Below, in pieces: positions 5,367-55,669 of a stretch of 64,000 nt of DNA. Under the pieces are notes generated by a model. That model did no database searches. It was given only the letters and a program-made list of their open reading frames with translations, and had not been told where the DNA came from. The position numbers were made by a program, and so were the translations under genes. Where the stretch lies: IMG/VR virus record IMGVR_UViG_3300022204_000005, one strand, 5' to 3'. Numbering within the stretch: position 1 is the stretch's first letter; each line of letters opens with the position of its first letter. The stretch is from a virus.

Positions 5367-5438
5367 GCCCGACTCTTCACAGCACAAACACACCGCCCCT
5401 CTAGAGTATAGGGGGGTTACAACCACTAGGAGAAACTG

Positions 5439-5729
5439 ATGGTAACTTTGGAAGCATTGCGAGTAGTGATCTTCGAGGTCTTCGAGGACCATATCGCCCC
5501 CTCCAACCCTAAATGGGCGTTGGAGAGAATCAAGGAAGGCACCTTTACCGGGGAGACGGACCCTGGGGAATGGTGCCCCGAGGCGGCATTCATCGTCCAC
5601 ACCGAAAATGGTATTCCGTCGGGGTACTACTACCCTGGCCTTCATACCCTTTGGGAGGAGGTGTGCGAAAGGTGCGACCTGCACCTCGAATATGTCAACG
5701 CGGCGGTAATCGCCCTCTGTGAACCTTAA
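5439..5729 (+). CDS. hypothetical protein
   Basis: ORF track; AGGAG SD. Confidence 0.65.
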   Translation: MVTLEALRVVIFEVFEDHIAPSNPKWALERIKEGTFTGETDPGEWCPEAAFIVHTENGIPSGYYYPGLHTLWEEVCERCDLHLEYVNAAVIALCEP

Positions 5730-5739
5730 AGGAGTAGAT

Positions 5740-6240
5740 ATGAAAGATTCAACCAAGCTCTTCCTTCGGGAAGATGATAGATTCTCTCTCAAATATGGGG
5801 TGGACTACACCTCCATGACCAAATACGGGGAAGTCCACCTCTTCACCTGCGAGATGTTCAAGGAGTCCCTTGAAGAGGGGATGAAAGCCTGTGGGGAGCA
5901 TTACGACTCCATCACGGTACTTCGGTACTACGGTGGAGTAAAGAACTACCCCCGACCGCACTACAAAGCCTTCCCCGTCACCGACTCCGCAGACTACCCC
6001 TGTGGGACCCTGGAGGGGTTTGACAAAGCCTACTCCTACGGACCCGACTCGGGGCTCTATGCTCTGGCTCAACCGCGAGAGAAGGCCAAACGCTTCGCTC
6101 ACGGAGGTATCCATCTCCACCCCACCCTTGGTGAGGTTATGGTGGCCAACATTCACCCTTGCGGTGGTGTCCGTTGGTTTCTGTATCTCTCCGAGTTGGA
6201 GGACCACCCGGAAATCCTGAAGTGGTTCGGGTTCCTCTAG
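5740..6240 (+). CDS. hypothetical protein
   Basis: ORF 5719..6240, start moved to ATG after AAGGAG SD. Confidence 0.7.
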   Translation: MKDSTKLFLREDDRFSLKYGVDYTSMTKYGEVHLFTCEMFKESLEEGMKACGEHYDSITVLRYYGGVKNYPRPHYKAFPVTDSADYPCGTLEGFDKAYSYGPDSGLYALAQPREKAKRFAHGGIHLHPTLGEVMVANIHPCGGVRWFLYLSELEDHPEILKWFGFL

Positions 6241-6280
6241 AGGTCTATTGGCTAACGGGGGTTCGATTCCCCCAAGACCT
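6241..6280 (+). ncRNA. tRNA minihelix-like element (closing stem + T-arm)
   Basis: AGGTCT/AGACCT closing stem; GGGGG-TTCGATT-CCCCC T-arm; intergenic. Confidence 0.45.
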
Positions 6281-6310
6281 TCTAACCTTTAAGCAAAAGG
6301 AGCCTAAGCG

Positions 6311-6952
6311 ATGTATACCGTACAAGAATGTAAAGACTTCATTGTCCTTATCGAGAAGTACGCCCAAAGGTCTGAAGACCTCGCCAACAATCTGGAGATG
6401 CTGGAGAAATGCAAAGAAGTTTTGCTTTCGCTCCCCGTCTCTATTGGCATGGCTCTGGGGTTCATGAGGAACAGCCCCAACAAAGAGCTAAGGGCTTTCT
6501 GCGAAGAGCGACGGCTCCCTATGGGTGCCTTTCTGCTTGAATGCGCGGATAGGGAGAAGTGGGTGAACTATGATGAACCTCTGTTCCAACCAAGGCAATG
6601 GTTTCACATTCGCAACGGGTACCTGAGTGTTGGGATGGGCGTGGTCCCATACAACTTCGGAGACACCTATTCCAAACGGGGACAAGACAAAGTCTTGGAT
6701 TATGTCTGGGCTAACTGCCCCGCGTCGATGTCCAATGCGCAAGATTTCTTGCAAGAGGGCGTCGAGTATCATATGCTCACCAGGGAGCCCGACAGTTACC
6801 TTCGGGACCATGCCTGGAATGATGAGGATGTTGCAGTGACCCGCCGTAACATCCGAATAAACGAGTGCTTGCCGTATTCCCTGGCCCCCGCCCAGGTCTA
6901 TCGGCAGGATAACGGCCTGGACCTTTGGATTTACAGCAAAGACCGCTACTAG
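6311..6952 (+). CDS. hypothetical protein
   Basis: ORF track; AAGGAG SD. Confidence 0.7.
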   Translation: MYTVQECKDFIVLIEKYAQRSEDLANNLEMLEKCKEVLLSLPVSIGMALGFMRNSPNKELRAFCEERRLPMGAFLLECADREKWVNYDEPLFQPRQWFHIRNGYLSVGMGVVPYNFGDTYSKRGQDKVLDYVWANCPASMSNAQDFLQEGVEYHMLTREPDSYLRDHAWNDEDVAVTRRNIRINECLPYSLAPAQVYRQDNGLDLWIYSKDRY

Positions 6953-6960
6953 GAGCCTAT

Positions 6961-7281
6961 ATGTACCACGTTCGTGTACTTCTAAGAATTCTGGAGTCGA
7001 GAGGCTTCCCCACTCCCCACCATAACCCTTACGAGGAGATTCCCTACATCAAAGAGTTCTGGTCCGAAGAGGTTTCGGGTCGGGAGGGGGACCGTATCGC
7101 TTGTATCTATGCCCTTACCCTTTTCTTCTTGGATAGGGTAGAGTTGACACCGCAAGAGCGAGAGGCTATCCTCTACATCCGAGACATGGCCGAGGCTAGG
7201 CCCGAAGCCATGCACTATCGAGATATGCAGCTGGGCGCAGCTTTGTTTATGCTGAAAACTTTCATGATCCCCAACCACTAG
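6961..7281 (+). CDS. hypothetical protein
   Basis: ORF 6925..7281, start moved to ATG after AGGAG SD. Confidence 0.65.
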   Translation: MYHVRVLLRILESRGFPTPHHNPYEEIPYIKEFWSEEVSGREGDRIACIYALTLFFLDRVELTPQEREAILYIRDMAEARPEAMHYRDMQLGAALFMLKTFMIPNH

Positions 7282-7292
7282 GAGAAACTACC

Positions 7293-7691
7293 ATGACCGA
7301 CAATAACACCCTTTTCATCATCCGTGGACTCCCCGGAAGTGCCAAAACCACCTTGGGTAAGATGCTCTCCGAGCAGACTTTCGCTGCCGATGATTTCTTC
7401 GAGGAGGAGGACGGGTCATACAACTTCGACCCCGCCAAACTCGGGGAGGCGCACGGGTTTTGGAAAATCCGAGTCGAGCAGGCTCTTGCCCACAAATGCC
7501 CGGTGGTGAGTGTGTGTAACACGTTTACCCAAGCCTGGGAGGCGGCTCCTTACTTCGAGTTGGCAAAGAAGTACGGCTACCGCGTAAGCGTTATCCACTG
7601 TCAAAACGACTTTGGAAACGTCCACGGGGTGCCCGTCGAGGCTATCGAGCGCATGAAAGAGCGCTGGGAGGAAAACATTTGGCCGGTATGA
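7293..7691 (+). CDS. AAA_33-family P-loop kinase (polynucleotide kinase-like)
   Basis: IIRGLPGSAKTT Walker A, AADDFF, VCNTFTQAWE, NVHGVPVEAIERM motifs. Confidence 0.8.
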   Translation: MTDNNTLFIIRGLPGSAKTTLGKMLSEQTFAADDFFEEEDGSYNFDPAKLGEAHGFWKIRVEQALAHKCPVVSVCNTFTQAWEAAPYFELAKKYGYRVSVIHCQNDFGNVHGVPVEAIERMKERWEENIWPV

Positions 7692-7957
7692 AACTCAAAC
7701 AATACCATCTTCTGAAAACCTATTTGGAGTCTTCCATACTAAGCCTGAGCGCACACATAGCGCTCATCAACTATCAAATGGAGAACACCCCGCAACAAAC
7801 GCGCCTGCTGAAAAAGGTCAGGAAGAAGCTCAAGAAAGAGAGGAAAATTCTACGAGAGCAACTCTCGGCTCTTGTGGATTCTCAACGACTCCAAGTCATC
7901 ACCCAGGGGCTTCAATCATACGAAGCCTATAGAAACCTGAAACGTAAGGAGCAATAA
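7688..7957 (+). CDS. hypothetical basic protein
   Basis: ORF track; ATGA overlap with upstream stop. Confidence 0.6.
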   Translation: MKLKQYHLLKTYLESSILSLSAHIALINYQMENTPQQTRLLKKVRKKLKKERKILREQLSALVDSQRLQVITQGLQSYEAYRNLKRKEQ

Positions 7958-7959
7958 CT

Positions 7960-8340
7960 ATGTACGGATGGAATAAAAAAGGCAGCAAGTGGGACTCTAA
8001 CGAGGACGACTGGTGGGAGGGCTCGGAGCCCGAATACAACACCCCCGAAGAGGCTAAAACAGCCCTGATGGAAGCGGCCAAGCGCGAAATCCTCACGGGG
8101 AATAGCGGCTACCCCCTCTGGGGCTCTATCTTCCAAGGGGAAATCAACCACAAGGCGGAAGTCTCCGGGGATATCATCGCTATCGAGGAGTTCTGCCTTG
8201 TCGAGGGTAACGAAGCCCTTAGAGAGGCTGACCGTCGGGCTGACCGCCAGGAATACGCCATGCAGGCAGGCATGGCTTTTGGCTGCGACGGCTACAACGA
8301 TGCTATGGGGTATGGCAGCGACGACCGGGGGGACTGGTGA
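7960..8340 (+). CDS. hypothetical protein
   Basis: ORF track; AAGGAG SD. Confidence 0.7.
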   Translation: MYGWNKKGSKWDSNEDDWWEGSEPEYNTPEEAKTALMEAAKREILTGNSGYPLWGSIFQGEINHKAEVSGDIIAIEEFCLVEGNEALREADRRADRQEYAMQAGMAFGCDGYNDAMGYGSDDRGDW

Positions 8341-8573
8341 CGAGAAACCCCCCTCTCCAACCCTTTCGTAGCGGCACCTTTACCTACAAGGGGTGCCGCT
8401 ACACCGAGGTAGAGGCAGCGTTCTTTTTCCGAAAAGGGCGCTTGACAGTCACCCTATTGGGCGGCTATAAAGAACACCTCCACGATGGAGAGTCAATCTG
8501 GCTCTTCGTCAACACACTGCCGGATATCCCGGCGAAAAGACTACTCAAACACAGAGTGAGGACTAACCCATGA
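8337..8573 (+). CDS. hypothetical protein
   Basis: ORF track; GTGA overlap with upstream gene. Confidence 0.55.
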   Translation: MTRNPPLQPFRSGTFTYKGCRYTEVEAAFFFRKGRLTVTLLGGYKEHLHDGESIWLFVNTLPDIPAKRLLKHRVRTNP

Positions 8574-9214
8574 GCGACAACCTTTCCTACGCCTTTATCA
8601 ACGGCCAGCCCCGGAACTACGATTTCTCATCGGAGGCTTACGACGCTGACCAGATGGGCAGGGGATGGTCCTCTCCCCAACCGGACTTCACCGGTTGGGA
8701 TATCGAAGACCTGTACAACCTCATCTCCGACAATAATATCGAAGGGACTTTCGAGGAGGAGACGGGAGAGGCATTCCCCGATACGGTCGCCGCCCTCGAA
8801 GACCTCGACATTGACTAGGAGGCGCTTATCGACCTTCTCGACGAATACTATTCCGAAAATCAGGACGAACTCTATCCCCTCATGGGCTATCTCCTCCCCG
8901 CCAGAGGGGACGGCGGTGGTTTGCAAGCGGCCCTCTTGGGGACCTGCCTTGTGGCGGTAGAGGTGTGGGGAGAGACTTACATGGCCCTCGCTGCGGGGGG
9001 GATGGACCTCTCGTGGGATATTTGCGAAGCCTACATCTCCCTTGGCTACTACCCCCCCGCTCATTACTGCGACCTCCCCCGTATGGCTGGGAGGGGGCTT
9101 TCGCCCAAGGACAAAGCCACCATCAAAACCTGTAAAGAGTCTATCAAGGTTGTCATGGAGCAGTTCCAGGCGCGTATCGACCACCTGACCGAAATGGAGA
9201 ACCGGGAAAAATGA
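8570..9214 (+). pseudogene. single reading frame split by one in-frame TAG (8816-8818): nonsense allele or readthrough
   Basis: ORFs 8570..8818 and 8882..9214 are in frame and joined by 21 sense codons (EALIDLLDEYYSENQDELYPL); no SD before ATG 8882. Confidence 0.55.
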
Positions 9215-9699
9215 ATAAATTCCGTTGGCTTATCCAACGAGTAAATCTACGGGCCAAGGGGGGAGCCCCCCGAGAGGGGGTGGACAATAAATTCAGCATG
9301 GATTATATGGGCGCTTCCGAATTTGAATTTGGAACGCTCCCCAAGGTGTTGGCCCGGATGCGGGAACACCTCGAAGCCTTCGAGATCAAACGAATTAAAC
9401 TCCCGACCGGGGAGGTTGCCTGGGCACTTTCGGTGCCCGAAGATTACGAGGAGGTAAAGGCATTCTTTCAACAGGAGTTAGAGGAGCCTAACCGGCTCCT
9501 GAAAATGCCCTCACTGCTAAGGCTTTCCTACGAGGAGGTGAAACCCTATTCAGAAATCATTGGGTGGTGGGCTATCGACGAATCTGTTGGAGCCTATCCT
9601 GACCGGGAGTACGTCACTCCCTGGGTAATGTTCAAGAAAAAATCAATGGCCAAAGATTTCCTCAAAGGACTTAAGGCCAAACCCACAGAGAACAACTAA
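9211..9699 (+). CDS. conserved phage hypothetical protein (DYMGASEFEFG motif)
   Basis: ORF track; ATGA overlap. Confidence 0.7.
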   Translation: MNKFRWLIQRVNLRAKGGAPREGVDNKFSMDYMGASEFEFGTLPKVLARMREHLEAFEIKRIKLPTGEVAWALSVPEDYEEVKAFFQQELEEPNRLLKMPSLLRLSYEEVKPYSEIIGWWAIDESVGAYPDREYVTPWVMFKKKSMAKDFLKGLKAKPTENN

Positions 9700-9956
9700 T
9701 GACATACTTCATCGTAGACAAAGACCTCATCGACGACGGACTCCTCAACGGAAGGACCTACGGGGGGGAACAGGCACCCGAAGGGGTGGAGCCCACCCGA
9801 TTCCGTCTCTACGACGACGACAATATCCTCTATTTCGAGGGGAGGGCTTGGCTCCGTCCCGACGATAGCGGATTCGAGATGCAGGATAGCCTTGGTTACA
9901 GCTACGGCTGTACCTCCACGAAGCTCCTCGAAAAGGGCAAGTGGAACATCCTCTAG
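9699..9956 (+). CDS. conserved phage hypothetical protein (FRLYDDDNILYFEG motif)
   Basis: ORF track; TAATG overlap. Confidence 0.7.
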   Translation: MTYFIVDKDLIDDGLLNGRTYGGEQAPEGVEPTRFRLYDDDNILYFEGRAWLRPDDSGFEMQDSLGYSYGCTSTKLLEKGKWNIL

Positions 9957-10046
9957 AGTTTCTTTAGGGGGAGCCTCTTAGTTATGAGGGGCTTCCCATC
10001 CTTTTCACACCACAAACACACTATCTATTCCAAGGAACACACGACT

Positions 10047-10916
10047 ATGACTACTCCTACACTCAACGACTTCGCAAAGTTCATCAAAAGCCAAATGGGG
10101 AAACCCGGTATCCGTGACCTCCAACGGACTGCCGCCTACCACGCCCGAGACATTTTCGGGGAGGACACTTCCATGCTGGAAGTGAACCCCTATCATTTCG
10201 GCCCGAAACTCTCGGGTGCCAATGGCCATCTGTCCCCGAAGAGCAAGGAGATGTATTGCAGGGCCTTCATGCAGGCTTGGATTATCTTCCACAAAGAGGG
10301 TCTGAAAGACGTTACCTCTTTGAAAGAGGGTAAAGATATCTTCACCCCTGGCCAATACGAAGCCCTGAAACAGGGTTGGTGGGGCGAGGTGGGGGTTGGG
10401 GAGTTGTTCGAGGAGCTTATGCACCCGTCGGGCAAGGTCCGCATCGAAGAGTTTTTCGAGAAAGACCTGGGAATGGCTCCGTCCACTGCCCAAAAGCAGA
10501 GACGGGATATCACCAAGGCCCTCCGAGAGGACGCCTGTCGAGGGTTTGACCGCACCAAAGCCGAACGACGGCGTGCCTTGGCGGTAGAGAGAGCCGTGGA
10601 CGCCAAACGGGAGAAGGAGGAGGCAGAGCTAAAGGCTCGTATTGCCGAGGAGGCGAAGGCTTCTTTCGAGGCCCGCGCCGAGGAGAAGGCGGCAGTGGAG
10701 GAAGTCTACACCCCTCCTACCCCTCCGAAAACACAACCCGAAAACCCCCACACCTTTACTTTCCCTCTCCAGGGTGGTAGGGTGTTGACCTTCTCTCTCC
10801 CCGAAGACGGGTTGAGTGTTGCAGAGGCTCGGAGGTTTGCTTTGCATATCCTGAGCTATTGCCCCGATATGACCATTGAGGACCTTCAAGCGCTCTCCCC
10901 TGCCCAGAGAGTCTAA
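10047..10916 (+). CDS. hypothetical protein; C-terminal domain shared with 49825..51507
   Basis: start moved after CA-rich leader and AAGGA SD; FPLQGGRVLTFSLPEDGLSVAEARR matches LQLKGDRVFKYEVPETGLTSNEAMR. Confidence 0.7.
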   Translation: MTTPTLNDFAKFIKSQMGKPGIRDLQRTAAYHARDIFGEDTSMLEVNPYHFGPKLSGANGHLSPKSKEMYCRAFMQAWIIFHKEGLKDVTSLKEGKDIFTPGQYEALKQGWWGEVGVGELFEELMHPSGKVRIEEFFEKDLGMAPSTAQKQRRDITKALREDACRGFDRTKAERRRALAVERAVDAKREKEEAELKARIAEEAKASFEARAEEKAAVEEVYTPPTPPKTQPENPHTFTFPLQGGRVLTFSLPEDGLSVAEARRFALHILSYCPDMTIEDLQALSPAQRV

Positions 10917-11034
10917 ATGCTCTTCGGAATCATCGCGGTTATCACCCTGGCTATCGGGGTGATAACAGGTTGGGTACTCGTAATCCTTTGCGGGTACATC
11001 ATCTGGAAATTCGATCTTTGGTATTGAGGTAAAG

Positions 11035-11319
11035 ATGGACGACGGCTCCATGTTCAAAGCTGCAATTATCGTGGTCATAGTATGCATCGTTGCATACATT
11101 GGCTATTCCTATTACGATAACTCCGCTCGGGAGATTATCATGGACTGCTCTCCCACAAAGAGTCTCTACTCTCCGGGGAGAGTGAACAAAGAGTATTGCA
11201 TCAAAAGGGATGCTCTTTGTTCTGATACAGATGGGGGCACTTACAGTTGCAAGAAGACTGTAAAGTGCTACGAGGACGAACAACAAGCCATTGAGGCTTG
11301 CGAGGAAGGGAGATACTGA
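11035..11319 (+). CDS. small membrane-anchored Cys-rich protein
   Basis: N-terminal hydrophobic helix followed by six Cys. Confidence 0.65.
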   Translation: MDDGSMFKAAIIVVIVCIVAYIGYSYYDNSAREIIMDCSPTKSLYSPGRVNKEYCIKRDALCSDTDGGTYSCKKTVKCYEDEQQAIEACEEGRY

Positions 11320-11553
11320 ATGGATAGCCATATGGACGACACCTATCACTTCATGGATGTACCTATCGACGACTATACCGTCACCGGGTACATCGAGGTT
11401 GGGTTGACTTCAGGTCCCGAACCTGTCATCGTCTTTGAGGAGATTTTGCACGAAGACCTCCTCATTGAGGATGAAAACCGTCTGGAGGAAATCGAAACAA
11501 TCCTCCGAGCAGACAAAGGTCTGTTTGACACACTGTTTCAAACCATTTCATAA
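11320..11553 (+). CDS. hypothetical acidic protein
   Basis: ORF track; abuts upstream stop; GGAG SD. Confidence 0.6.
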   Translation: MDSHMDDTYHFMDVPIDDYTVTGYIEVGLTSGPEPVIVFEEILHEDLLIEDENRLEEIETILRADKGLFDTLFQTIS

Positions 11554-11598
11554 CCCACCCGCTACACACGAACACACCACACAAGAGAGACACGAGCT

Positions 11599-11841
11599 AT
11601 GACTACCAAAAAGAAACCGACCCCCGAGCAGAAAGAAATCATCAACGGGCTCCAAAAGCACGCTCTCGCCCACTACGAGGAGGGTTGGGATATGCTTTAT
11701 GAGGCTTGGGAGGATTACGAAATCGTGGAAGTCCTCGAAGAAAAGGATATCATGACCTTTGAGGAAGCTCTTGAAGAGTTCACAAAGATCATGGGTATCT
11801 GCGGAGAGCGGAGAGCGGAGGTACAGTCCTTTATCTTCTGA
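11599..11841 (+). CDS. hypothetical protein, paralog of 2909..3133
   Basis: shared KHALAHYEEG and EVQSFIF; CA-rich leader. Confidence 0.75.
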   Translation: MTTKKKPTPEQKEIINGLQKHALAHYEEGWDMLYEAWEDYEIVEVLEEKDIMTFEEALEEFTKIMGICGERRAEVQSFIF

Positions 11842-11952
11842 AACACTTTCCAACCACTTTTGAAACAAAATGAAACATCCCCTGGTATTAGACTAGGGGA
11901 TATTTCTACTAAAATGAAACACTTTCACTGAGGGGTGAAACAAAATGAAACA
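11839..11952. promoter_or_regulatory. six phased TGAAACA direct repeats flanking a hairpin (putative operator array)
   Basis: TGAAACA at 11839, 11861, 11871, 11915, 11936, 11946; ATCCCCT/AGGGGAT hairpin between the two triplets. Confidence 0.55.
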
Positions 11953-13140: not shown

Positions 13141-13168
13141 TTTACTCAATCCATCAGGAGGTTTACGG

Positions 13169-19098: not shown

Positions 19099-19156
19099 AC
19101 TTTTTTTCTAAAATTTCGTCCCTACAGACAATGAGACACCCTATAGGATGAGAGGG
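19095..19156 (+). promoter_or_regulatory. putative phage promoter module Y, copy 1
   Basis: TTGAACTTTTTTT..TTTCGTCCC.ACAGACAATGAGACACCCTATAG..TGAGAGGG near-identical to 21544-21604. Confidence 0.55.
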
Positions 19157-19211
19157 GGGGCAAGGCACCCCCCCTCACCCACACAAACGCACCACACACA
19201 AGAGAGACACA

Positions 19212-21547: not shown

Positions 21548-21604
21548 ACTTTTTTTGAAAGTTTCGTCCCAACAGACAATGAGACACCCTATAGAGTGAG
21601 AGGG
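21544..21604 (+). promoter_or_regulatory. putative phage promoter module Y, copy 2
   Basis: near-identical to 19095-19156; followed by hairpin, CACAAACACAC and ATG. Confidence 0.55.
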
Positions 21605-21663
21605 AGGAGCAAGGCTCTCCCTCTCACTCACACAAACACACCACAACACACGGAGACTACGAT

Positions 21664-25372: not shown

Positions 25373-25431
25373 CGAGACACTGCCCTGTAGAAGGGGGCTC
25401 CACTACAACACACACGACTACAACACACACC

Positions 25432-28854: not shown

Positions 28855-28876
28855 ACTTTTTGAAGTTTCTTTACCG

Positions 28877-28920
28877 GAAAGTGATCAAATAGGGTACGGG
28901 ACGGTCTATAGGATGAGAGG
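28877..28920 (+). promoter_or_regulatory. putative phage promoter module X, copy 2
   Basis: 32/33 nt identical to 2181-2213; 3' end CTATAGGATGAGAGG identical to module Y1. Confidence 0.55.
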
Positions 28921-29538: not shown

Positions 29539-29573
29539 TACAAACACACCACACACAAGAGAGAGACCTTATT

Positions 29574-31850: not shown

Positions 31851-32010
31851 CTCTCACGGTTGGGACGTGACTGTCGAGGTTAAAACCCGACCGTGTGTAA
31901 GAGAGAGGTTCACGGTGGTATCGACTCCCTCTTATGTGGTAAACGGACCCACTATGTCTGTTGCCCAAAAGTACCCCACCCCCCCTATGAACTTGGAGGG
32001 GGTGGGGTGC
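31851..32010 (+). ncRNA. structured leader / small ncRNA candidate
   Basis: ACGGTTGGG/CCCGACCGT 9-bp stem, second stem TAAGAG/CTCTTA, loop-loop complementarity, terminal 13-bp GC hairpin. Confidence 0.45.
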
Positions 32011-32051
32011 CTCACTTCACCACACACAAACACACCACAGAGACATACACT

Positions 32052-33298: not shown

Positions 33299-33423
33299 TT
33301 GAATCATAAGGGCTGAAGGTCATTGGTTATCTTTTGATTAAAACTTACCAACGACCACAAATTTACCCTATAGATTCAAATTCATACACACACAAACACA
33401 CCACACACAAGAGAGGAAACGTA

Positions 33424-46440: not shown

Positions 46441-46589
46441 TTAATCCGTGGGTCCCCGGTTCGATCCCGGGAGGGCGTACTCCTACTCAAAGCCTTTTAG
46501 GGTAGGGTCTTATAAAAACGAAGGTGAATAGAGTGTTGGGCTTTCACTCTTAGTAACCACCCCCACACAAACACACACGGTTAAAGATA

Positions 46590-46844: not shown

Positions 46845-46853
46845 AAAAAAGAC

Positions 46854-46882: not shown

Positions 46883-46894
46883 AAAGCATGCTTT

Positions 46895-46969: not shown

Positions 46970-47071
46970 CTGAGAGGTCTGTCTCGAATTGGTTATCATA
47001 TACTTTTAAATATAAACGACCCGATTCAAACTCCCTTAACCTCTCAAACCTTTACACCACACAAACACACC

Positions 47072-47797: not shown

Positions 47798-47853
47798 GCT
47801 TCTCCTCAATGACGGACAAGCCGTCAGTCCACACCACACACACACAGTGCAAC

Positions 47854-48639
47854 ATGACACACACCACACACACACTTCTCCCCGCCCTTGTTGAGAGACT
47901 CAAAGCTTCCAAATCTGAGCGCCCTCAGTCATGGTTGTCTATGGGGAAAACATTCTTTAAAAAGAATGGTATCGACCCCAACCCTGTCGGACCCAATAAT
48001 CGAAAAACGGGTGTTGCAGGGACCTATGCCAAAGTAGGTGAGACCTGCCCCTCTACTTGTCCTTATCTGGATAACGGATGCTATGCTCAACATGGGCAAG
48101 TCAATATGCATCAAAATCGTGCAGTCACTGAGCTTGAGCCCAGCTTGAGTGCTGCGGCATTGGCGATGTATGCGTCCATTAGAGGGAAGAGTATCACCCG
48201 TTTGCATGTAAGCGGAGATTTTGGTAATAACAACACTATTTGGGTTGACTATATCCTTGGCCTTTGTGAGCTTGCCTCTAGCCTTAAAGAGCTTATGGGT
48301 ATTGACTCTAAAGAGGTTGTAGCCTTTACATACACTCATTTCCCTAAAGAGACCTTTGAGCCCTATAGACTCCTTTTGAAAGCTCATGGTATCTCGGTTG
48401 TCTATTCAGACATTATAGAGGTAGGTGGGGCTATCGTAGCCAATAGCTCTGATATCCCCCGACTTCGGGGAGAGTCCGGGCTTTTGATTAAGCAATGCCT
48501 TAATCAGACTGCAGACGTCTTGTGTAAAGATTGCACTTGGTGTTGGACCTTTGAGAGGCGTAAACTTATTGTCGCTTTTGACCCTCATGGGTCTAAAGGT
48601 AAAACCGTACAAAAGACGGTGGCTGAGCTATGGAAGTGA
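47854..48639 (+). CDS. Gp88/DUF7227-like Cys-rich phage protein (possible metal/Fe-S cluster)
   Basis: NRKTG...TCP..CPY..NGCYA, RLHVSGDF, FTYTH, C...C..C..CW motifs; start uncertain (47809 possible). Confidence 0.55.
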   Translation: MTHTTHTLLPALVERLKASKSERPQSWLSMGKTFFKKNGIDPNPVGPNNRKTGVAGTYAKVGETCPSTCPYLDNGCYAQHGQVNMHQNRAVTELEPSLSAAALAMYASIRGKSITRLHVSGDFGNNNTIWVDYILGLCELASSLKELMGIDSKEVVAFTYTHFPKETFEPYRLLLKAHGISVVYSDIIEVGGAIVANSSDIPRLRGESGLLIKQCLNQTADVLCKDCTWCWTFERRKLIVAFDPHGSKGKTVQKTVAELWK

Positions 48640-49145
48640 GGGAGCCAACCTACCTCTTCTCGAAAGAGGTAGATGACTTAATTCAGGAGACCATAGAGTG
48701 TGTTAGACAAAAGCACACTCTAGATAAAAACCTACATATCGTTTGGACTTGGTCTAATAAGATGACTCGTACAGCGGGTTATGCTTGGAAAAACAAACGT
48801 AAGGTTCGTTTCTCTGCAGACCTCTTTAAAAGAGATAAAGTTTCGGGCAGACGTAATACCATTGTTCATGAGATTTGTCATATACTATCTTGGGAAGTTT
48901 ATGGTAATAAAATAAAACCTCATGGTAATGAGTGGAAGTATTTAATGCGGCTTTGCGGGGAGGAGCCGCTTAGGACTCACAATATAAAAGTGAAACCTAA
49001 GCATCCTCGCTACCCAACCTATTGTATGTGCCCTAAACCCCATATGCTGGTTAAGCAAATGATTAACCGTATGAAGAGGGGTACGGCATATACCTGTACA
49101 ACCTGTAAAGAGGTTTTGACTCTTCACAAGGACTTTTACATATGA
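48630..49145 (+). CDS. SprT-like zinc metalloprotease
   Basis: WSNKMTRTAG.A, TIVHEICH, PHGNEWK..M, C-terminal C.C...C..C. Confidence 0.85.
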   Translation: MEVREPTYLFSKEVDDLIQETIECVRQKHTLDKNLHIVWTWSNKMTRTAGYAWKNKRKVRFSADLFKRDKVSGRRNTIVHEICHILSWEVYGNKIKPHGNEWKYLMRLCGEEPLRTHNIKVKPKHPRYPTYCMCPKPHMLVKQMINRMKRGTAYTCTTCKEVLTLHKDFYI

Positions 49146-49399
49146 GAAAAAAGATTCAATTCTTTCAAATAGAAATTCTTTTTGAACCTAAAGAGGTTCG
49201 AGCCCGAGCAGGTAAAAAAGGTACAGGGAAGATACTACGCCCTTGTACCTTTGAAGATAATCTTGGTTTAAATTTCGCAGTACAAAAAACCAAGAAATAT
49301 ATGTCTCTTCAGTACCCAGAAGCTAAAGAGACATATGAGGATGAAAACGGAGTCCTTTGGGTAAGAGGCCCAGAGGATTGGATGAAACTACCAGATTAG
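49142..49399 (+). CDS. hypothetical protein
   Basis: ATGA overlap. Confidence 0.6.
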   Translation: MRKKIQFFQIEILFEPKEVRARAGKKGTGKILRPCTFEDNLGLNFAVQKTKKYMSLQYPEAKETYEDENGVLWVRGPEDWMKLPD

Positions 49400-49408
49400 G
49401 ATATAGAA

Positions 49409-49753
49409 ATGTTTAAAGGCGAAAAAAGAGCGGTGCTGTCTTCGGATGGAGAATCTATTACCTTTGAGGTGGAAGAGCCTCTAGGGTTTGCATATGATTT
49501 GAAAAGCCCTATTGAGTCTAGACTTGAGGAGGGATATATCACTGAGAAGGAAATCGTCAAAACCACTAAGGGAAATTACATTCTCCGTATTGGTCATTAC
49601 CTTGAAGGTGAAGACCGTAAAACAATTGAGAATGTTTATCATGTATGTTTTGATATGGAGGATTTGATAGAGGAACTAGATGATACTTGTCCTCTAGAGA
49701 GAATTCTTCTAGTAAAACTAGATGCACTTGAAAGTAAGAGTCAAGAAGTATAA
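49409..49753 (+). CDS. hypothetical protein
   Basis: ORF track. Confidence 0.65.
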   Translation: MFKGEKRAVLSSDGESITFEVEEPLGFAYDLKSPIESRLEEGYITEKEIVKTTKGNYILRIGHYLEGEDRKTIENVYHVCFDMEDLIEELDDTCPLERILLVKLDALESKSQEV

Positions 49754-49824
49754 CTCTAGTGCATCTTCTTAGTTTCTAATCTTATAACACTCTAAACACC
49801 ACTATACAAACACAGGACACTACC

Positions 49825-51507
49825 ATGACTATTCAAGGCGAATGCACCACAACCCTTCAGCAGTTCCGAACCTTTATCACTCAGAGCCCCATAAGTCTGA
49901 ATGACAAAGAAAAAGAAGTGTTGTTTAGTATCATTGACCTCTCTTTCGAGCCAACGGATACCATCGAGGTCTTTAGACAACGTCGGGATATCTTGACAAA
50001 TATCTTTCGGAAAACCCAACCTACATATTGTCGAGCCAACGACGATTTGTTTTTTGACAGTATGAGTAAAGGGCTTTATACTTTTGTGAAAGAGCATACC
50101 CAATTCCGCTTTCTTGGGGAGATGGAAACCTTTTACTCTACTTTCAGTGAAGATAACTACCCTACCATCTTCGCGGATATCCATTCCTTCGTAAGGTCTA
50201 GCCGATTGGCTTCGGCCCGACTCATCAAGCACTATTCTACAGGGACCTCAGTTCATATTCCCTTCAAGGATTACTGTGACGGGAACTTGATTAGCAAGTA
50301 CCTGAGTGATGGGCTGAGAGAGAAAACGGCTCAAAACTACCAGATTAATGCCGCAAAGGCTATTCTGTTTTTCATGGAGAACTTCAAAGAGTACGAAAAG
50401 CTTCAGAAAGCTTTTGAAGCTTCGGAGCTTGAGGCTAAGGCTAAAGCTAAAGAGGAGACTGAAATGCTTCAGGAAGCTTTTGAGGCATCTGAACCCCAAA
50501 GCTGGGAAGACTTTGTTTATGAGCCCAAGACTCTTGACAGAAGTTCAAGCCCTATGAAGACTGTTGCTGATTTGTATCAGCATACCAAAGAGAACACCAA
50601 AATGAGCGCCTATAAGCAAAAGATTGCGCTCGATGGTTTGGAGACTGCTTGCAACATGGCAGACCCCATCTCTTTGATTGACAAAAAGACTTACATCAAA
50701 ACTCTTAGAGAAAAAGGTAAAAACCTCTCTAAGATAAAAGCCAGAAACTATCTGTTGGCTTTGGAGGAGTCTATCGAATGTTTTACAAAGGACTTCTATA
50801 GAACAGAAGGTCAAGAGTTTACCTTGGGGGACCTTCTTACCTTTATGGATTTCTATACCCACCACATTCCCCACGAGTATCACCCCCGGTCGACGGCGAC
50901 CCGCAAGCAAGACCTCTATACGGTAAGGAAAGCCATTCAATACTTCCGTACCGACAGACCACTGCTTTCCGCGTTCAATCTCTCTCAATCCAAGTTCAAG
51001 CAGCACTTGGATGACGACGGGGAGATGACCAAGTCAACCATTGCAACCTATGTACGGGGGTTTAAAGGGACCTTCCTTACCTTTATGGTCTTCTACAAGT
51101 TTTGGGAGAAACCCCAACTCTTGCAACCCGAGGTCGAGGTCGCTGAGGTTGAGGTCACTGAGGAGGCTGAGGTTGGGGTCACTGAGGAAGCTGAGGTCGC
51201 TGGGGAGGCTCTTATCGAAAGTGTGAAAGCTGCCATTGTTGAGCAACTGCAACAAGTCGCTTTCACTGCCCCTGAGCCCCCTACTACTATAGAGGTGGAG
51301 GAGGTTGTGCTCCCTGAGCCCTCAAAGCTCTCTCAGAAGCTCCAGCTCAAAGGAGACCGTGTCTTTAAGTATGAAGTGCCTGAGACGGGTTTGACCTCCA
51401 ACGAGGCTATGCGTATTGCCCTCCGTATCCTTACGGAGGTCGTCGACTTCGATGAGAAGGACCTCGACCGACTGCAAACCGTCGCAGGTACCGTAAAGAC
51501 CATTTGA
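49825..51507 (+). CDS. large hypothetical protein; integrase core-binding-like helical repeats, no catalytic domain seen
   Basis: LREKTAQNY and MTKSTIATYVRG segments; C-terminal domain shared with 10047..10916. Confidence 0.65.
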   Translation: MTIQGECTTTLQQFRTFITQSPISLNDKEKEVLFSIIDLSFEPTDTIEVFRQRRDILTNIFRKTQPTYCRANDDLFFDSMSKGLYTFVKEHTQFRFLGEMETFYSTFSEDNYPTIFADIHSFVRSSRLASARLIKHYSTGTSVHIPFKDYCDGNLISKYLSDGLREKTAQNYQINAAKAILFFMENFKEYEKLQKAFEASELEAKAKAKEETEMLQEAFEASEPQSWEDFVYEPKTLDRSSSPMKTVADLYQHTKENTKMSAYKQKIALDGLETACNMADPISLIDKKTYIKTLREKGKNLSKIKARNYLLALEESIECFTKDFYRTEGQEFTLGDLLTFMDFYTHHIPHEYHPRSTATRKQDLYTVRKAIQYFRTDRPLLSAFNLSQSKFKQHLDDDGEMTKSTIATYVRGFKGTFLTFMVFYKFWEKPQLLQPEVEVAEVEVTEEAEVGVTEEAEVAGEALIESVKAAIVEQLQQVAFTAPEPPTTIEVEEVVLPEPSKLSQKLQLKGDRVFKYEVPETGLTSNEAMRIALRILTEVVDFDEKDLDRLQTVAGTVKTI

Positions 51508-51515
51508 GTCTTGTA

Positions 51516-51544
51516 CAAAAAATGATCCCAGGGATCGTTTTTTG
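51516..51544 (+). terminator. probable intrinsic terminator
   Basis: CAAAAAATGATCCC-AG-GGATCGTTTTTTG hairpin directly after stop. Confidence 0.55.
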
Positions 51545-51545
51545 T

Positions 51546-51574
51546 TTGACTTCCCTTCTGAGAAGACCTAATCT
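51546..51574 (+). promoter_or_regulatory. sigma70-type promoter
   Basis: TTGACT-17-TAATCT; inverted copy GGAAGTCAA downstream. Confidence 0.6.
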
Positions 51575-51640
51575 CTCTCTTGTCAGGGGGGAAGTCAAAC
51601 ACTCCCACACACAAACACCCCACACACAGGAGGCTTCACT

Positions 51641-51649
51641 ATGAAGTAG
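51641..51649 (+). other. minigene ATG-AAG-TAG behind a perfect SD
   Basis: CA-rich leader, AGGAGG, 7 nt, ATG AAG TAG. Confidence 0.45.
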
Positions 51650-51786
51650 CCAACTTACAAGTTCTTCAAGACCGCTTCACCCCGTTTTAAGTCAAGTTCC
51701 TAAAGTTCTGTCCCTCTCCCTAGGGGGCGCTGTTGCTCCCCGGGGAACACGCAACTACAGTGTCTAACAACAATAAGGTTCCTACC

Positions 51787-53040
51787 ATGACTACCGAAAA
51801 TACCGTTATCGACCTCGCCACCAACCCCAACTCTGCTCCCGAGACGGATACCATGAATACCGAGACTGCCCCCACCCCTGAGGTGGTTCCCGAAGCCCCC
51901 AAAACCCGAAGCCCCCACATTGAAGCCATCTTCGACGTGGTGAAGTCGGGACTCGCCTACACCCAGCAGACCCTCCAGGGTCAGGGTGCCAAGACCCCCC
52001 TCGCGGAGGCCAAGGTCAGGGCCTATCAGTCCGACGACAAGATCAAGCTCTACTTTGATGTCCCGGCTGAGGAAGAGGGTGAGGAAGGGACCGTCGACGA
52101 GGTCGTGATCTTTGTCGGTAGTGACTCCCCTACCGCCGCTCAGGTCGACCCCTCGGAGATCATCGCTGAGAAAGAGGAGGCGTTCAAGCGTGGTATCGGC
52201 CACGGGCTCCTCATCTGCGCCTTTGGGATGATGCAGTGCTTCGGTAGCGCCTCGGCGTCCGACCTCCGCATGAACCTCGGACTCGATTCCAAGGTCGCCC
52301 GGGCGGTTATCGACGCCCTGTTGGAGGCCAAGGTTGTCACCAAACAGGGTACTGGACCTTCGGTCAGGTACTTCCCGGTTGAGGGCTCCTCGCTGGATAT
52401 GCCCGACTTCTCGCTCTCCTCGAAGACGAGACGGCGGAAGTCCAGCAAGCGTAGCTCCAAGAGCGGGGCGAAAGCTGCCGACCTGAACGCTGGTGTCCTC
52501 ACCCGTATCCTCCGATACGCCAAGGTCATGGGCTCCAAAGAGGGTGGTTTTGCCCCCAAGGACGTTCGTGAGAAATTCACGCTCAACACCGCCACCGCCA
52601 AGGTCTATCTCGACCTCCTCCTTGACGAGAAGATCGTTGACCGCGTGGGTCACGGTCGAGGGGTGAAGTACACTTGGCTTGCCCCCGAGACCTTTGAGGA
52701 GCAGGCTTTCGTTCAGAAGCACGCCCCCAAGGCTGAGGCTACTGAGCCCGCGAAGGTTGAGGAGGTCAAGGCTCCTAAGGCTGAGAAGCCTGTCAAGCTT
52801 GCGCCTGTGCTCGATGATGAGGACGACGACGAGGACGATGATTTCTGGACGGACGAGCGCATGGAGGTGTCGACGGCGATTGAGGAGTTCCTCACCGCTT
52901 CCGACGAGGCCGACTTTGACGAGATCGTCGCCTTTGCTGAGGAGGACGAGGAGGAGGTTTCCGCGCTCCTTGAGCGAATGGTCGAGGATGGTATTGTCAC
53001 CGTGGACGGCGATGTCTACGCGATGAACGACAACATCTGA
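51787..53040 (+). CDS. multi-winged-helix DNA-binding-like protein with acidic C-terminus
   Basis: three wHTH-like segments (LLEAKVVTKQGTGPSVRY; LLDEKIVDRVGHGRGVKY; MVEDGIVTVDGDVY); strong C/G-ending codon bias. Confidence 0.6.
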   Translation: MTTENTVIDLATNPNSAPETDTMNTETAPTPEVVPEAPKTRSPHIEAIFDVVKSGLAYTQQTLQGQGAKTPLAEAKVRAYQSDDKIKLYFDVPAEEEGEEGTVDEVVIFVGSDSPTAAQVDPSEIIAEKEEAFKRGIGHGLLICAFGMMQCFGSASASDLRMNLGLDSKVARAVIDALLEAKVVTKQGTGPSVRYFPVEGSSLDMPDFSLSSKTRRRKSSKRSSKSGAKAADLNAGVLTRILRYAKVMGSKEGGFAPKDVREKFTLNTATAKVYLDLLLDEKIVDRVGHGRGVKYTWLAPETFEEQAFVQKHAPKAEATEPAKVEEVKAPKAEKPVKLAPVLDDEDDDEDDDFWTDERMEVSTAIEEFLTASDEADFDEIVAFAEEDEEEVSALLERMVEDGIVTVDGDVYAMNDNI

Positions 53041-53054
53041 GTTCGATGAGAAGG

Positions 53055-53092
53055 GGCCGAGGGGGGTTGAGTTTCCCTCTCGGCCTTTTTTT
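53055..53092 (+). terminator. intrinsic terminator
   Basis: GGCCGAGGGGG / CCCTCTCGGCC hairpin followed by T7. Confidence 0.8.
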
Positions 53093-53114
53093 CATTTTAA
53101 CTCAGGAGTTGTTT

Positions 53115-53525
53115 ATGAAATATCTAAATCTGGAGTGTTTTGATTTCTGGGAAAAAGAAAACAAAACGACTTTAGATCGTTTGTTTCTTTTGGTGAAATC
53201 GGATGGGTCTATTTGGGAGACGCCCCTAAAGATTGATGGTCGAAGACACCATATCTTGGAGCTTTATCCCTCTGAGGAAGCTGCCCTTAACTTTCTCGTT
53301 GAAACCCACCGAGAGTCTGCAGGGCTCGATGTACGGAGCTACTCCCGTACAGTTGTTGAGAGATACCTCTTGACACGGCAGCAACAGCCCGATAGGCTGG
53401 CTGGAGTGACCTTTGTCCCTGGTGGTGACGGGACCCCCTTCGTGGAGCCCTTCACCCGGGCACTGGCACAGACAACCAAGGCATTCGCACAGGAGACTCC
53501 ATGCAGCCCGAAAGCCCTAAACTAA
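53115..53525 (+). CDS. hypothetical protein
   Basis: ORF 53046..53525, start moved after AGGAG SD. Confidence 0.65.
   Translation: MKYLNLECFDFWEKENKTTLDRLFLLVKSDGSIWETPLKIDGRRHHILELYPSEEAALNFLVETHRESAGLDVRSYSRTVVERYLLTRQQQPDRLAGVTFVPGGDGTPFVEPFTRALAQTTKAFAQETPCSPKALN
53370..53398 (+). promoter_or_regulatory. possible internal sigma70-type promoter
   Basis: CCTC-TTGACA-17-TAGGCT inside a CDS. Confidence 0.35.
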
Positions 53526-53773
53526 ACGATGCGCAAAAGGGAGGACTCATTGCTCATTATGTAAAAACCTTGTTCTCTGCCAAAAGCCCTTTGTGGATTC
53601 AAATCCTTCTTGTTTTTGCCCTTGTCTATCTGGTCTGCCCCATTGACATCATCCCTGATTTCATTGTAGGTATTGGCTGGCTAGATGACCTCTTCATGAT
53701 TCTGACCGCTATAGGTCTTATACCTGTAGCCATCCCGAAACCCAATACATATACCGTCGAGCTTGTAGATTAA
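53501..53773 (+). CDS. DUF1232 (YkvA-like) membrane protein
   Basis: LVYLVCPIDIIPDFIVGIGWLDDL. Confidence 0.85.
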   Translation: MQPESPKLNDAQKGGLIAHYVKTLFSAKSPLWIQILLVFALVYLVCPIDIIPDFIVGIGWLDDLFMILTAIGLIPVAIPKPNTYTVELVD

Positions 53774-53775
53774 GC

Positions 53776-53804
53776 TTGACAACCCCCACCCCCTCTACTA
53801 CACT
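53776..53804 (+). promoter_or_regulatory. sigma70-type promoter with 13-bp inverted repeat
   Basis: TTGACA-17-TACACT; CACCCCCTCTACT/AGTAGAGGGGGTG. Confidence 0.7.
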
Positions 53805-53862
53805 TCAAAAAGTAGAGGGGGTGCTGCTCTACTTACACAAACACACTACAGGACATCAAACC

Positions 53863-54975
53863 ATGTTTGGACAAAACGAAGAAACACTTGCCGCCTTGAA
53901 TAAACTTTCAGAATCCTTGGGTGGAGACATCATTACCCACACACACGGAGGTGGGGAGTTCTCCACAGGTACGGACGGGGAGACTTTGGCTGACTACCAT
54001 ATGTTCTCGGTCGGTCGTAGACCCCTTCATGGTATTCACGTACCCGCTGAGATGAAACTCTCGGCTGAGGAGGCTATGGCGGTGGCCGGTCTCGATTGGG
54101 AAGTGGAGCGTAAACCGCTTTACTTCTACATGGACGAGGACACCCTGCGACAAGCCAAACAAGGCTTTGCAATTGTCCGTAAAAATGACCAGAAGACCCT
54201 TGGGGTTGTTGGTCCTCGATATACCCCTATCCAAAACTCTGAAGCCTTTGGGGCTTTCCAAGAGTGGACCGGGGATAGAGGGCTGGAGTTCGTTGCCGGT
54301 GGGGCAATGAGTGGAGGTAAAAAAGTCTGGCTTCAGGCTAAAATGCCGGATACCTTTGAAGCCGTTAAAGGAGATGCTGTTCAAAAGTATCTCTTCTTGA
54401 TGAATAGCTTTGATGGCTCTTCCTCCCTCACCATTCGTATCACCCCCACCAGGGTGGTTTGCTGTAACATGGTAGCCTCTATCATCTCCCGCAAGGGGAA
54501 GAGAGTGAAGAGGTTTATCTCGGTCAAGCATACCAAAAACTTCCGAAAGACTCTTGAGGCTTCTCTCGAAAACATCTTTGGGATTTCAAATCAGTCCTGG
54601 CAACAGTTTGAGGCTATGGCGAAAGCTATGGTTCATGTGCAACTCAATGTGACTCAATTCAATGAGTATGCACATGCTCTCTTCCCCGACCCCCAACCTA
54701 AAGAGGGGGAGGTCGAGGTCTCCGAGACGCGCCTTGTCAACGCTCAGGGCAAACGCGACCAACTCACCGAACTCTTTGAGAACGGGTTGGGTCAGGATAT
54801 CCCCGGGGTGCAAGGGACTGCGTGGGCGGCGTATAACGCCCTCACGGAGTACAACAACTACTACATCGGTGGGGAGACCTCTCAGGACCGTAGGTTCCAG
54901 TCTGCGATTCTCGCGGGTCAAGGTATCTCCCTTCAGAACAAAGCCGAAGACTTCCTGATGGCTTACGCTGCTTAA
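53863..54975 (+). CDS. DUF932 family protein (phage/plasmid-like, TIGR03299 type)
   Basis: AGLDWEV, LGVVGPRY.PIQN.EAF, GGKKVW, LMNSFDGSSS, RVVCCN, GTAWAAYNALTEY. Confidence 0.85.
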   Translation: MFGQNEETLAALNKLSESLGGDIITHTHGGGEFSTGTDGETLADYHMFSVGRRPLHGIHVPAEMKLSAEEAMAVAGLDWEVERKPLYFYMDEDTLRQAKQGFAIVRKNDQKTLGVVGPRYTPIQNSEAFGAFQEWTGDRGLEFVAGGAMSGGKKVWLQAKMPDTFEAVKGDAVQKYLFLMNSFDGSSSLTIRITPTRVVCCNMVASIISRKGKRVKRFISVKHTKNFRKTLEASLENIFGISNQSWQQFEAMAKAMVHVQLNVTQFNEYAHALFPDPQPKEGEVEVSETRLVNAQGKRDQLTELFENGLGQDIPGVQGTAWAAYNALTEYNNYYIGGETSQDRRFQSAILAGQGISLQNKAEDFLMAYAA

Positions 54976-54985
54976 TCAACTTTAA

Positions 54986-55014
54986 GGGGTGGGTCTTAAT
55001 AGATGACCCACCCC
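54986..55014 (+). terminator. GC-rich hairpin after DUF932 gene (terminator/stabiliser)
   Basis: GGGGTGGGTC/GACCCACCCC; weak U-tract. Confidence 0.45.
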
Positions 55015-55036
55015 AAACTTTCTAAAGGATTTAGAG

Positions 55037-55630
55037 ATGTATCAGACTACTCGCGAAGAGATGATTGTTGAGCTTCAGAAACAGAAAGAGTTTCTCATTA
55101 AACTTAATGAGATTATGCCTCTACAAAGCGAAACCGATTGGATGTACTTTCGGGAATTCGGGGCTAAAAACGTCCACCCTCTCTTTGTCAATAGACTCGA
55201 CGGTGCTACAAAGGTGGTTATAGACGCTTTAAAAGAAGTGTCCAATAGATTGGATGTAACCCACCCGAGCAATGCGGTTTACAATACAAAAGACAGATTC
55301 GTCTTCCCCTCTTTGTTTACCCAAAATTATAATGGAGAATGGGATTGTGTCTCTTTCTGGAAAAGAGACCTCCTTTTTCTTAAAGAAGACTACCAACAAA
55401 ACTATGATGAGAAGACGGACGAGTGGGATTGCCTTTGTACTTTTGAAGCGGGGACCGTTCCTTTTAGGGACCTTTTAAAGGCCCCCACCACACAACCCAC
55501 AAAAGAAGATGCAGAGCTTCTAGACACTCTCTCTTGCCTTGTAGGAAGAAACCTTCGTCTAGTGACGGCTGTCACTACGGAAATGAAAGATATCTTTCTA
55601 GAAGGTGACTTCCATCTATACATGTTCTAA
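55037..55630 (+). CDS. hypothetical protein
   Basis: ORF track. Confidence 0.65.
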   Translation: MYQTTREEMIVELQKQKEFLIKLNEIMPLQSETDWMYFREFGAKNVHPLFVNRLDGATKVVIDALKEVSNRLDVTHPSNAVYNTKDRFVFPSLFTQNYNGEWDCVSFWKRDLLFLKEDYQQNYDEKTDEWDCLCTFEAGTVPFRDLLKAPTTQPTKEDAELLDTLSCLVGRNLRLVTAVTTEMKDIFLEGDFHLYMF

Positions 55631-55669
55631 TTAGTGTCTCCCCACACAAACACACCACGAGTTTTAGAT

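Follow-up and report, generated by a model that had tools for sequence, protein, structure and literature searches.

What does a virus gain from an 11-base word set in front of many of its genes, always on the same strand? The question is raised by the 64,000-nt stretch of viral DNA IMGVR_UViG_3300022204_000005 (an IMG/VR record), which was analysed in its full length and is called the window here. The word, CACAAACACAC, is free of G and U and occurs in the window in 12 exact copies, all on the + strand. With moderate confidence, the analysis as a whole points to a translation enhancer of the CA/ACA type, or a ribosome landing pad.

CACAAACACAC would sit as a conserved core in a transcribed 5′ leader, ~20 nt long, that consists of C and A only and is placed before the first gene of many early-type gene blocks. 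Such a tract should be unable to pair with itself and should stay single-stranded in the mRNA. It often follows a stable hairpin or a tRNA and precedes a Shine-Dalgarno (SD) sequence that is weak, distant or missing. There the 30S subunit may find an open landing or standby site and be anchored, probably by ribosomal protein S1. The neighbouring AUG would then be initiated more strongly, and the tract would be most important where the SD is weak or absent. The sequence shows the copies, their strand, their place at starts and past predicted promoters, their predicted accessibility and the inverse relation to SD strength; the gain in translation and the role of S1 we infer.

Copies of the word

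The exact copies, the variants and two degenerate leaders are listed with their surroundings.

5383..5393, + strand: exact copy, 45 nt before ATG 5439, with a C5/G6 hairpin and an AGGAG SD in between
10011..10021, + strand: exact copy, 25 nt before ATG 10047, 13 nt past a 13-bp hairpin with a short T run
21631..21641, + strand: exact copy, 22 nt before ATG 21664, immediately after a GACACCCTATAG module and a 16-bp hairpin
32025..32035, + strand: exact copy, 16 nt before ATG 32052; preceded at 177 nt by a TTGACA-N17-TACTGT promoter and at 14 nt by the end of a C/G-run hairpin
33391..33401, + strand: exact copy with the full extended leader, a C/A run of 25 nt, 22 nt before ATG 33424; two TTGACA promoters and tRNA-Leu upstream
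37377..37387, + strand: exact copy, 20 nt before ATG 37408; promoter, tRNA-Met and tRNA-Leu upstream
38951..38961, + strand: exact copy, 15 nt before ATG 38977; weak SD; promoter, tRNA-Thr and tRNA-Ile upstream
41581..41591, + strand: exact copy, 1 nt before ATG 41593, without a correctly spaced SD, after a tRNA-like element
46566..46576, + strand: exact copy, 13 nt before ATG 46590; weak SD
47060..47070, + strand: exact copy, 1 nt before ATG 47072; TTGACA-N17-TAATAT promoter and tRNA-Val upstream
53836..53846, + strand: exact copy, 16 nt before ATG 53863 (DUF932 gene), 32 nt past the -10 box of the promoter at 53776-53804
55645..55655, + strand: exact copy, 14 nt before ATG 55670, in an intercistronic gap of 39 nt; weak SD
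2271..2281, + strand: variant CACAACCACAC, 19 nt before ATG 2301, in a C/A run of 25 nt
2885..2895, + strand: variant CACAACCACAC, 13 nt before ATG 2909, right behind a long hairpin
11567..11577, + strand: variant CACGAACACAC, 21 nt before ATG 11599
19182..19192, + strand: variant CACAAACGCAC, 19 nt before ATG 19212, with the same layout of promoter-like module and hairpin as at copy 21631
29539..29549, + strand: variant TACAAACACAC, 24 nt before ATG 29574, overlapping the upstream stop codon by one base (the first of the variant, the last of the codon)
43073..43083, + strand: variant CACAAACACCC, 20 nt before ATG 43104 (FtsH-like protease), 17 nt past a tandem tRNA-like pair
51610..51620, + strand: variant CACAAACACCC, preceded by a terminator and a TTGACT-N17-TAATCT promoter, followed by AGGAGG and a two-codon mini-ORF (ATG AAG TAG, 51641-51649; ORF, open reading frame)
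47829..47875, + strand: degenerate CA leader; the SD-less ATG 47854 stands between two C/A runs (18 and 19 nt)
25420..25431, + strand: degenerate CA leader that abuts the SD-less ATG 25432

An earlier sequence-only reading of this DNA had reported the 12 exact copies on the + strand, about 0.02 copies expected by chance, and five variants. All 12 were recovered at the same positions. The expectation from base composition is ~0.016, and no match occurred in 100 dinucleotide-preserving shuffles. The five variants are likewise present (11567, 19182, 29539, 43073 and 51610), and two more of the form CACAACCACAC were found at 2271 and 2885. These seven are used like exact copies; they belong to 13 further + strand matches that a one-mismatch search of the window returned. 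Four others are (CA)n-type words adjoining starts (~40152 and 47835-47865), and the remaining two (61776, 63079) lie within ORFs and have no association with a start. The strand specificity claimed for the word also held, as no match with up to one mismatch exists on the - strand of the window. The window is part of a 77.5-kb metagenomic contig (ENA ERZ27296367), and fragments of the same DNA occur in Logan SRR7132271; a literature search for the run accession returned no paper. No further copy was detected on either strand in the 13 kb of the contig beyond the window, which include the - strand genes at both ends.

When the copies are aligned on the motif, the conserved core grows to ~17-19 nt (c-a-CACAAACACAC-c-a-c-a). 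A subset of copies shares a cassette of ~40 nt, which runs through an AGAGAG/AGGAG element up to the ATG. Farther up- or downstream, no conserved element at a fixed distance was found in this alignment. An order-2 Markov model of the C/A-only tracts, trained on these tracts themselves, predicts 0.73 occurrences of the exact word within them; with 12 observed, the excess is 16-fold.

Anchoring to start codons

Distances were measured on a set of 138 genes, composed of the source assembly's gene calls and own calls for two short stretches. All 12 exact copies are intergenic and stand 1-45 nt before an ATG, in line with the reported position 1-50 nt before starts. Including the variants, the distances from motif to ATG are 1, 1, 13, 13, 14, 15, 16, 16, 19, 19, 20, 20, 21, 22, 22, 24, 25 and 45 nt (17/18 within 1-25 nt, median ~19). 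The 19th copy, the variant at 51610, stands before the two-codon mini-ORF. Every motif gene starts with ATG (18/18), and the 12 starts after exact copies are all called in the source assembly as well. Measured from the previous stop codon, the motif is 0 to 532 nt away, and in long gaps it is always located at the start-codon end. Since the distance to the ATG stays narrow over this range, the motif is tied to the start codon. Three copies are found inside operons, where the intercistronic gap measures 35-45 nt.

The 16 downstream proteins compared have no similarity to one another, and the sequences that flank the ~19-nt core are unrelated among the copies. A spread by gene duplication is therefore excluded. 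Another proposal sees the repeats mainly as recombination junctions: shared leader cassettes would shuffle small early genes, and gene conversion would keep the repeats identical. Promoter-stem-loop (PeSL) repeats of T4-type phages are comparable recombination junctions. The downstream genes are indeed unrelated orphans, and some copies share a cassette of up to ~40 nt including the SD, two of them a module of ~90 nt. Most flanks outside the core, however, share nothing, unlike recent conversion tracts, and shuffling leaves the C/A-only composition, the accessibility and the relationship to the SD unexplained. Recombination is regarded as highly improbable, the least probable of the readings weighed here.

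Leader RNA and Shine-Dalgarno strength

The C/A-only runs in which the motif copies are embedded have a length of 12-26 nt (median 21), and each contains 3-9 ACA triplets. The ACA density is 0.157 per nt in these tracts versus 0.017 genome-wide. C/A runs of at least 15 nt occur 22 times on the + strand and not once on the - strand, and most of them are leaders. Secondary structure prediction yields a mean probability of being unpaired of 0.90 for the motif and 0.54 for the surrounding 145 nt. Against 30 other first-in-block genes, the predicted openness is higher in the motif leaders (0.74 vs 0.50, p=1e-4) and in the initiation region, i.e. the ribosome-binding site (RBS), of the motif genes (0.62 vs 0.52, p=0.012).

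More ACA triplets in the leader go along with a weaker SD (Spearman 0.42, p=0.003; 48 genes with an upstream gap of at least 35 nt). The mean SD duplex is -4.0 kcal/mol in leaders with at least four ACA and -6.5 kcal/mol in those with at most one (p=4e-4). The absence of a clear SD had been noted for the starts at 41593 and 47072, and neither has a usable one. The best anti-SD pairing at 41593 is AAGGA beginning 20 nt upstream, while 47072 is without any SD (best anti-SD duplex 0 kcal/mol). Three starts are fully SD-less (47072, 25432 and 47854), and all three are located in CA tracts. This observation and the trend of ACA count with SD strength identify CA-richness as a graded property of the phage's leaders; the exact 11-mer is its most conserved form. 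At 47854, the flanking C/A runs cause the first codons to encode Thr-His repeats. The layout resembles a published effect of CA repeats downstream of the start codon.

Comparison with known CA-rich enhancers

Elements of this composition are known. In Salmonella, CA-rich tracts before the SD contain ACA triplets that enhance translation from flexible positions; removal of four ACAs from dppA lowered the expression more than 100-fold (PMC3879156). The same study cites earlier work in which ACAA repeats supported initiation without SD, and proposes S1 as reader (PMC3879156). Single-stranded 5′ tails of CA repeats 'dramatically increase translation rates'. The effect peaks at 16-18 nt, is abolished by an antisense oligonucleotide to the tail and was termed 'puzzling' by the authors (PMC5934652). 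Like the phage motif, the enhancers of gltI, yifK and dppA and the synthetic tails are G-poor C/A tracts with several ACA and are located upstream of the SD. Both are single-stranded (by prediction for the motif), flexible in position and close to the optimum of 16-18 nt. The known enhancers can support initiation at a poor SD, and the motif tracts occur at poor-SD starts. They differ in their repetition: the known cases are individual, non-identical cellular tracts or engineered repeats, whereas a single phage here repeats one exact 11-mer ~19 times.

The sequence-only reading had offered two functions, of which the structure-free standby or enhancer element fared better. Start-anchored C/A tracts of 12-26 nt, predicted to be single-stranded and richest at weak SDs, match the published enhancers (PMC3879156, PMC5934652). 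A recognition site for a translational activator or antiterminator, the other function, is possible given that the word is conserved beyond composition, but nothing supports such a site directly.

Several points weigh against an enhancer. The exact word is conserved far beyond the needs of an open tract. Strict standby, the rescue of a closed RBS, is not what the folds suggest, since the RBSs of the motif leaders are predicted to be open and not sequestered. As a class, the motif genes have an SD that is only marginally weaker (-4.6 vs -5.6/-5.75 kcal/mol, p ~0.09-0.10). The correlation of ACA count and SD strength is partly coupled through composition, and non-overlapping regions yield a rho of 0.31 (p=0.03). 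The behaviour of S1 and SD is extrapolated from enterobacteria and may not be that of the host. Finally, no relative that shares the motif, and would show its conservation, was found in the phage, viral-contig, metagenome and genome collections searched.

If the tracts are enhancers, the kind of element is already known, and the novelty is the repeated use of one exact CA word. The natural CA-rich enhancers so far are scattered single genes; the phage would provide a compact natural test set for recognition by the ribosome or S1. The leader of ~20 nt is a possible portable expression element. For annotators, such phages call for caution, as the SD alone does not suffice for picking start codons.

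Predicted transcription of the leader

A strict search for TTGACA-N17-TAnnnT on both strands returned 16 sites, all of them on the + strand. About 2 sites would be expected, a rough estimate from 43 + strand copies of TTGACA and the base composition.

7144, 25344, 31820, 33055, 33141, 36447, 37052, 38520, + strand: TTGACA-N17(18)-TAnnnT sites
40710, 45746, 46854, 47772, 50054, 53370, 53776, 59624, + strand: TTGACA-N17(18)-TAnnnT sites, continued
53776..53804, + strand: example of the host-type promoter class, upstream of motif copy 53836

Many of the 16 sites read (a)cctcTTGACA at their upstream end, with a TAGACT/TACACT-type -10 box; several are located directly before tRNA genes. From these features, the sites look like a uniform set of early promoters of the host sigma-70 type. 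Seven motif copies have a TTGACA/TTGACT-N17-TAnnnT promoter in the same gap, 32-403 nt upstream, and one or two tRNAs lie between in four of the seven. The predicted transcripts reach the motif after ~25-30 nt at copies 53836 and 51610. Copies 19182, 21631 and 2271 are located downstream of a GAC-N3-CTATAG module, with a long hairpin next at 19182 and 21631. Because the motif is downstream of the predicted promoter in these arrangements, it is part of the predicted RNA leader and not of that promoter. We infer that it is transcribed as 5′ leader from the predicted promoters. The reported context of the copies, after a promoter, hairpin or tRNA, holds.

Two other candidates for promoters were rejected. 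A generic sigma-70 scan showed no overall enrichment, only the strict TTGACA-N17-TAnnnT class being strand-specific, and the words CTATAG and TAGAG as general promoter are neither enriched nor strand-biased overall.

The motif itself has been considered as a compact promoter or promoter-proximal element. A phage-specific transcription machinery, encoded elsewhere, would use it to make short-leader or leaderless middle or late transcripts. It is strand-specific, spans ~17-19 bp and stands before the first gene of blocks, often behind hairpins; two copies abut the ATG as leaderless promoters do. The 77.5-kb contig, on which no structural genes were recognised, is perhaps part of a larger genome. 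However, seven copies already share their gap with a strong host-type promoter, and three are situated in the 35-45-nt gaps inside operons. There is neither an AT-rich melting element nor a G for T7-type initiation, and no conserved element occurs at a fixed distance on either side. Promoters of the T7/SP6 type are words of ~20 bp over the start site with a G start and come with a phage RNA polymerase gene, whereas the motif is without G, and neither an RNA polymerase nor a sigma gene was recognised on the contig. A function as promoter is considered quite unlikely.

The GAC-N3-CTATAG modules occur as near-identical pairs (19125-19180 and 21573-21628; 2180-2215 and 28875-28915). A stop codon with ACTTTTT precedes three of them (19099, 21548, 28855), and AGTATTTT precedes the fourth, at 2168-2300. 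Behind three of the four modules comes a CA leader. Their geometry resembles the SP6/T7 promoter (GACAC..TATAG), yet CTATAG itself is not enriched in the window.

Stable hairpins, mostly with C-run/G-run arms, end 1-28 nt before about half of the motif copies. Their role as intrinsic terminators was rejected, as only the hairpin at 9968-9997 has a T run. Intergenic C5-7...G5-7 hairpins recur in the window (1137-1156, 2803-2828, 5396-5416, 19150-19175, 31990-32010, 53782-53815 and others), usually without a T tail and often just before a CA leader. These C-run/G-run hairpins may be mRNA hairpins for end protection or processing.

Start-associated sequences and stoperators

Dispersed words before start codons have been described in Cluster K mycobacteriophages. 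These Start-Associated Sequences (SAS) have one orientation and are phage-private; a role in translation initiation is suspected and undemonstrated (Pope et al. 2011, PMC3203893). SAS and the motif are both short, asymmetric, phage-private words with 11-19 copies, almost all in one orientation. Both stand upstream of the ATG starts of unrelated non-structural genes, about half of them after an upstream inverted repeat or hairpin. The SAS consensus GGGATAGGAGCCC contains the AGGAG core of an SD, whereas the motif has no G and is located upstream of the SD or replaces it. SAS are placed 3-7 bp from the start, the motif 1-45 nt (median ~19). The conserved ESAS, an imperfect inverted repeat of 17 bp, precedes about half of the SAS; the hairpins before the motif differ in sequence among the copies and are predicted to pair as RNA. 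Lacking the SD core and the SAS consensus and standing farther from the start, the motif is, by its sequence, not a member of the SAS family. It shares its dispersed layout with SAS and its composition with CA/ACA enhancers. The reuse of one exact CA word before ~19 unrelated genes, some of them SD-less, would enlarge the unexplained class of phage 'start-associated sequences'.

Stoperators of L5 and the Cluster A phages are asymmetric repeats of ~13 bp with many intergenic copies oriented with transcription, as are the motif copies. The motif could therefore be an asymmetric DNA operator of this type, at which a repressor blocks the elongating RNA polymerase and silences the early region. A short asymmetric repeat in one orientation to transcription and with many intergenic copies corresponds to the stoperator layout, which the SAS study sets against that of SAS (PMC3203893). 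Stoperators act on DNA via the repressor, with a true operator at the early promoter, and are located near starts and stops of early and late operons across both genome arms, whereas the motif is tied to starts in one block of early type. The copies are anchored at start codons and not spread over the gaps, none is found in the - strand gene blocks at the contig ends, and a fixed geometry to promoters is lacking. Neither a repressor nor an integrase was recognised on the possibly incomplete contig, which has no sign of a temperate phage. Taken together, an operator is very unlikely.

Candidate readers of the word

The over-representation of the exact word even within C/A tracts leaves room for rival readings, among them the recognition of the word by a dedicated reader. 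It is conceivable, though unlikely, that the exact word is the mRNA binding site of one trans-acting factor, either an RNA-binding protein of phage or host or a GcvB-like GU-rich small RNA (sRNA). With the same low probability, such a factor would switch ~19 early genes together, by translational activation or repression or by cleavage (RegB-like, or by an ACA-cutting MazF). The invariant core between unrelated flanks and the 16-fold excess agree with a specific reader, and GcvB-type sRNAs are known to target CA-rich enhancers of this kind (PMC3879156). A nearby gene encodes a protein with four CCHC knuckles. On the other side, the spacing of 1-45 nt to the AUG is loose for a repressor that occludes the RBS. 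No complementary GU-rich RNA was found on the 77-kb contig: complements of 7-8 nt are no more frequent than by chance, and the sole intergenic match is buried in a stem. The source Pfam matches contain no recognised RNA-binding regulator.

The protein at 62777-63688 (303 aa) contains four canonical retroviral-type CCHC knuckles (CX2CX4HX4C) and had been named as candidate reader of the motif. The protein is real, but its role as reader was not supported. CCHC knuckles usually prefer single strands that contain G, and the motif has none. Homologues of the knuckle repeat are encoded in jumbo-phage-like contigs of ~200 kb (L219, L220), directly upstream of ClpP, amidase and GroEL genes. No CA-tract leaders were detected in the 10-20 kb of these contigs examined, which also argues against a trans-acting factor of this family. 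It is likewise unlikely that CACAAACACAC is the address label of a translational regulon read by a phage protein that binds single-stranded RNA, the knuckle protein being one candidate, or by a sequence-specific RNase. If it were, ~19 early mRNAs, including those with SD-less starts that abut the motif, would be switched together in translation or stability during infection.

Search for relatives

Megablast against phages revealed no relative, and protein-guided scans of viral contigs with DUF932, FtsH and DUF7227 revealed none that shares the motif. Pattern scans for the motif in viral, metagenome and genome contigs returned only single chance matches, microsatellite-like repeats and a conserved Flavobacterium coding segment. 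Protein searches retrieved the phage itself and otherwise homologues with at most 40% identity. Other phage genomes with different CA-rich words (e.g. CACACAAATATT) have no sequence similarity to the window, and the exact word was found in no phage context in the literature. Two other assemblies of the same phage are identical save one single-nucleotide polymorphism, and therefore give no diversity signal.

The nearest relative is a distant one, a contig of 75.4 kb from Logan SRR18164404 (L149). It has two proteins in common with the phage (DUF932 and one other, ~36% identity), and no CA motif occurs in the 21 kb of it seen. L149 has its own strand-specific repeated word, GTTGACAAACG, all of whose 4-5 copies are on the gene strand.

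Genomic setting and minor elements

About 125-138 small genes, every one on the + strand, make up the window. ARAGORN detected nine tRNAs, and two tandem tRNA-like elements were seen by Rfam only; the Rfam scan of the window yielded tRNAs and no other family. Recognisable products are an FtsH-like protease, DUF932, SSB, SprT-like, HNH, NADAR and antitoxin-like proteins. Most of the proteins scanned and most of the source gene calls have no family assignment. The source Pfam matches on the 77.5-kb contig include no recognised capsid, terminase, RNA polymerase, sigma factor or repressor family. For this reason the contig looks, by its gene content, like a part of a novel phage that is possibly larger, namely its early or accessory region.

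The box TGGTTAYC lies 2-25 nt past three tRNA or tRNA-like 3′ ends (33324, 41550, 46990). It was rejected as an element, maybe occurring there by chance, since 5 copies were observed and 4.1 expected in the window.

The variant at 51610 belongs to a compact unit (51519-51649). It comprises a bidirectional-looking terminator (GATCCC-AGG-GATC with A6 and T6 flanks), TTGACT-N17-TAATCT, the motif variant, a strong AGGAGG and the mini-ORF. The unit is located 84 nt upstream of a GC-rich ORF of 435 aa with winged-helix matches, and may be a start-stop or leader-peptide control element.

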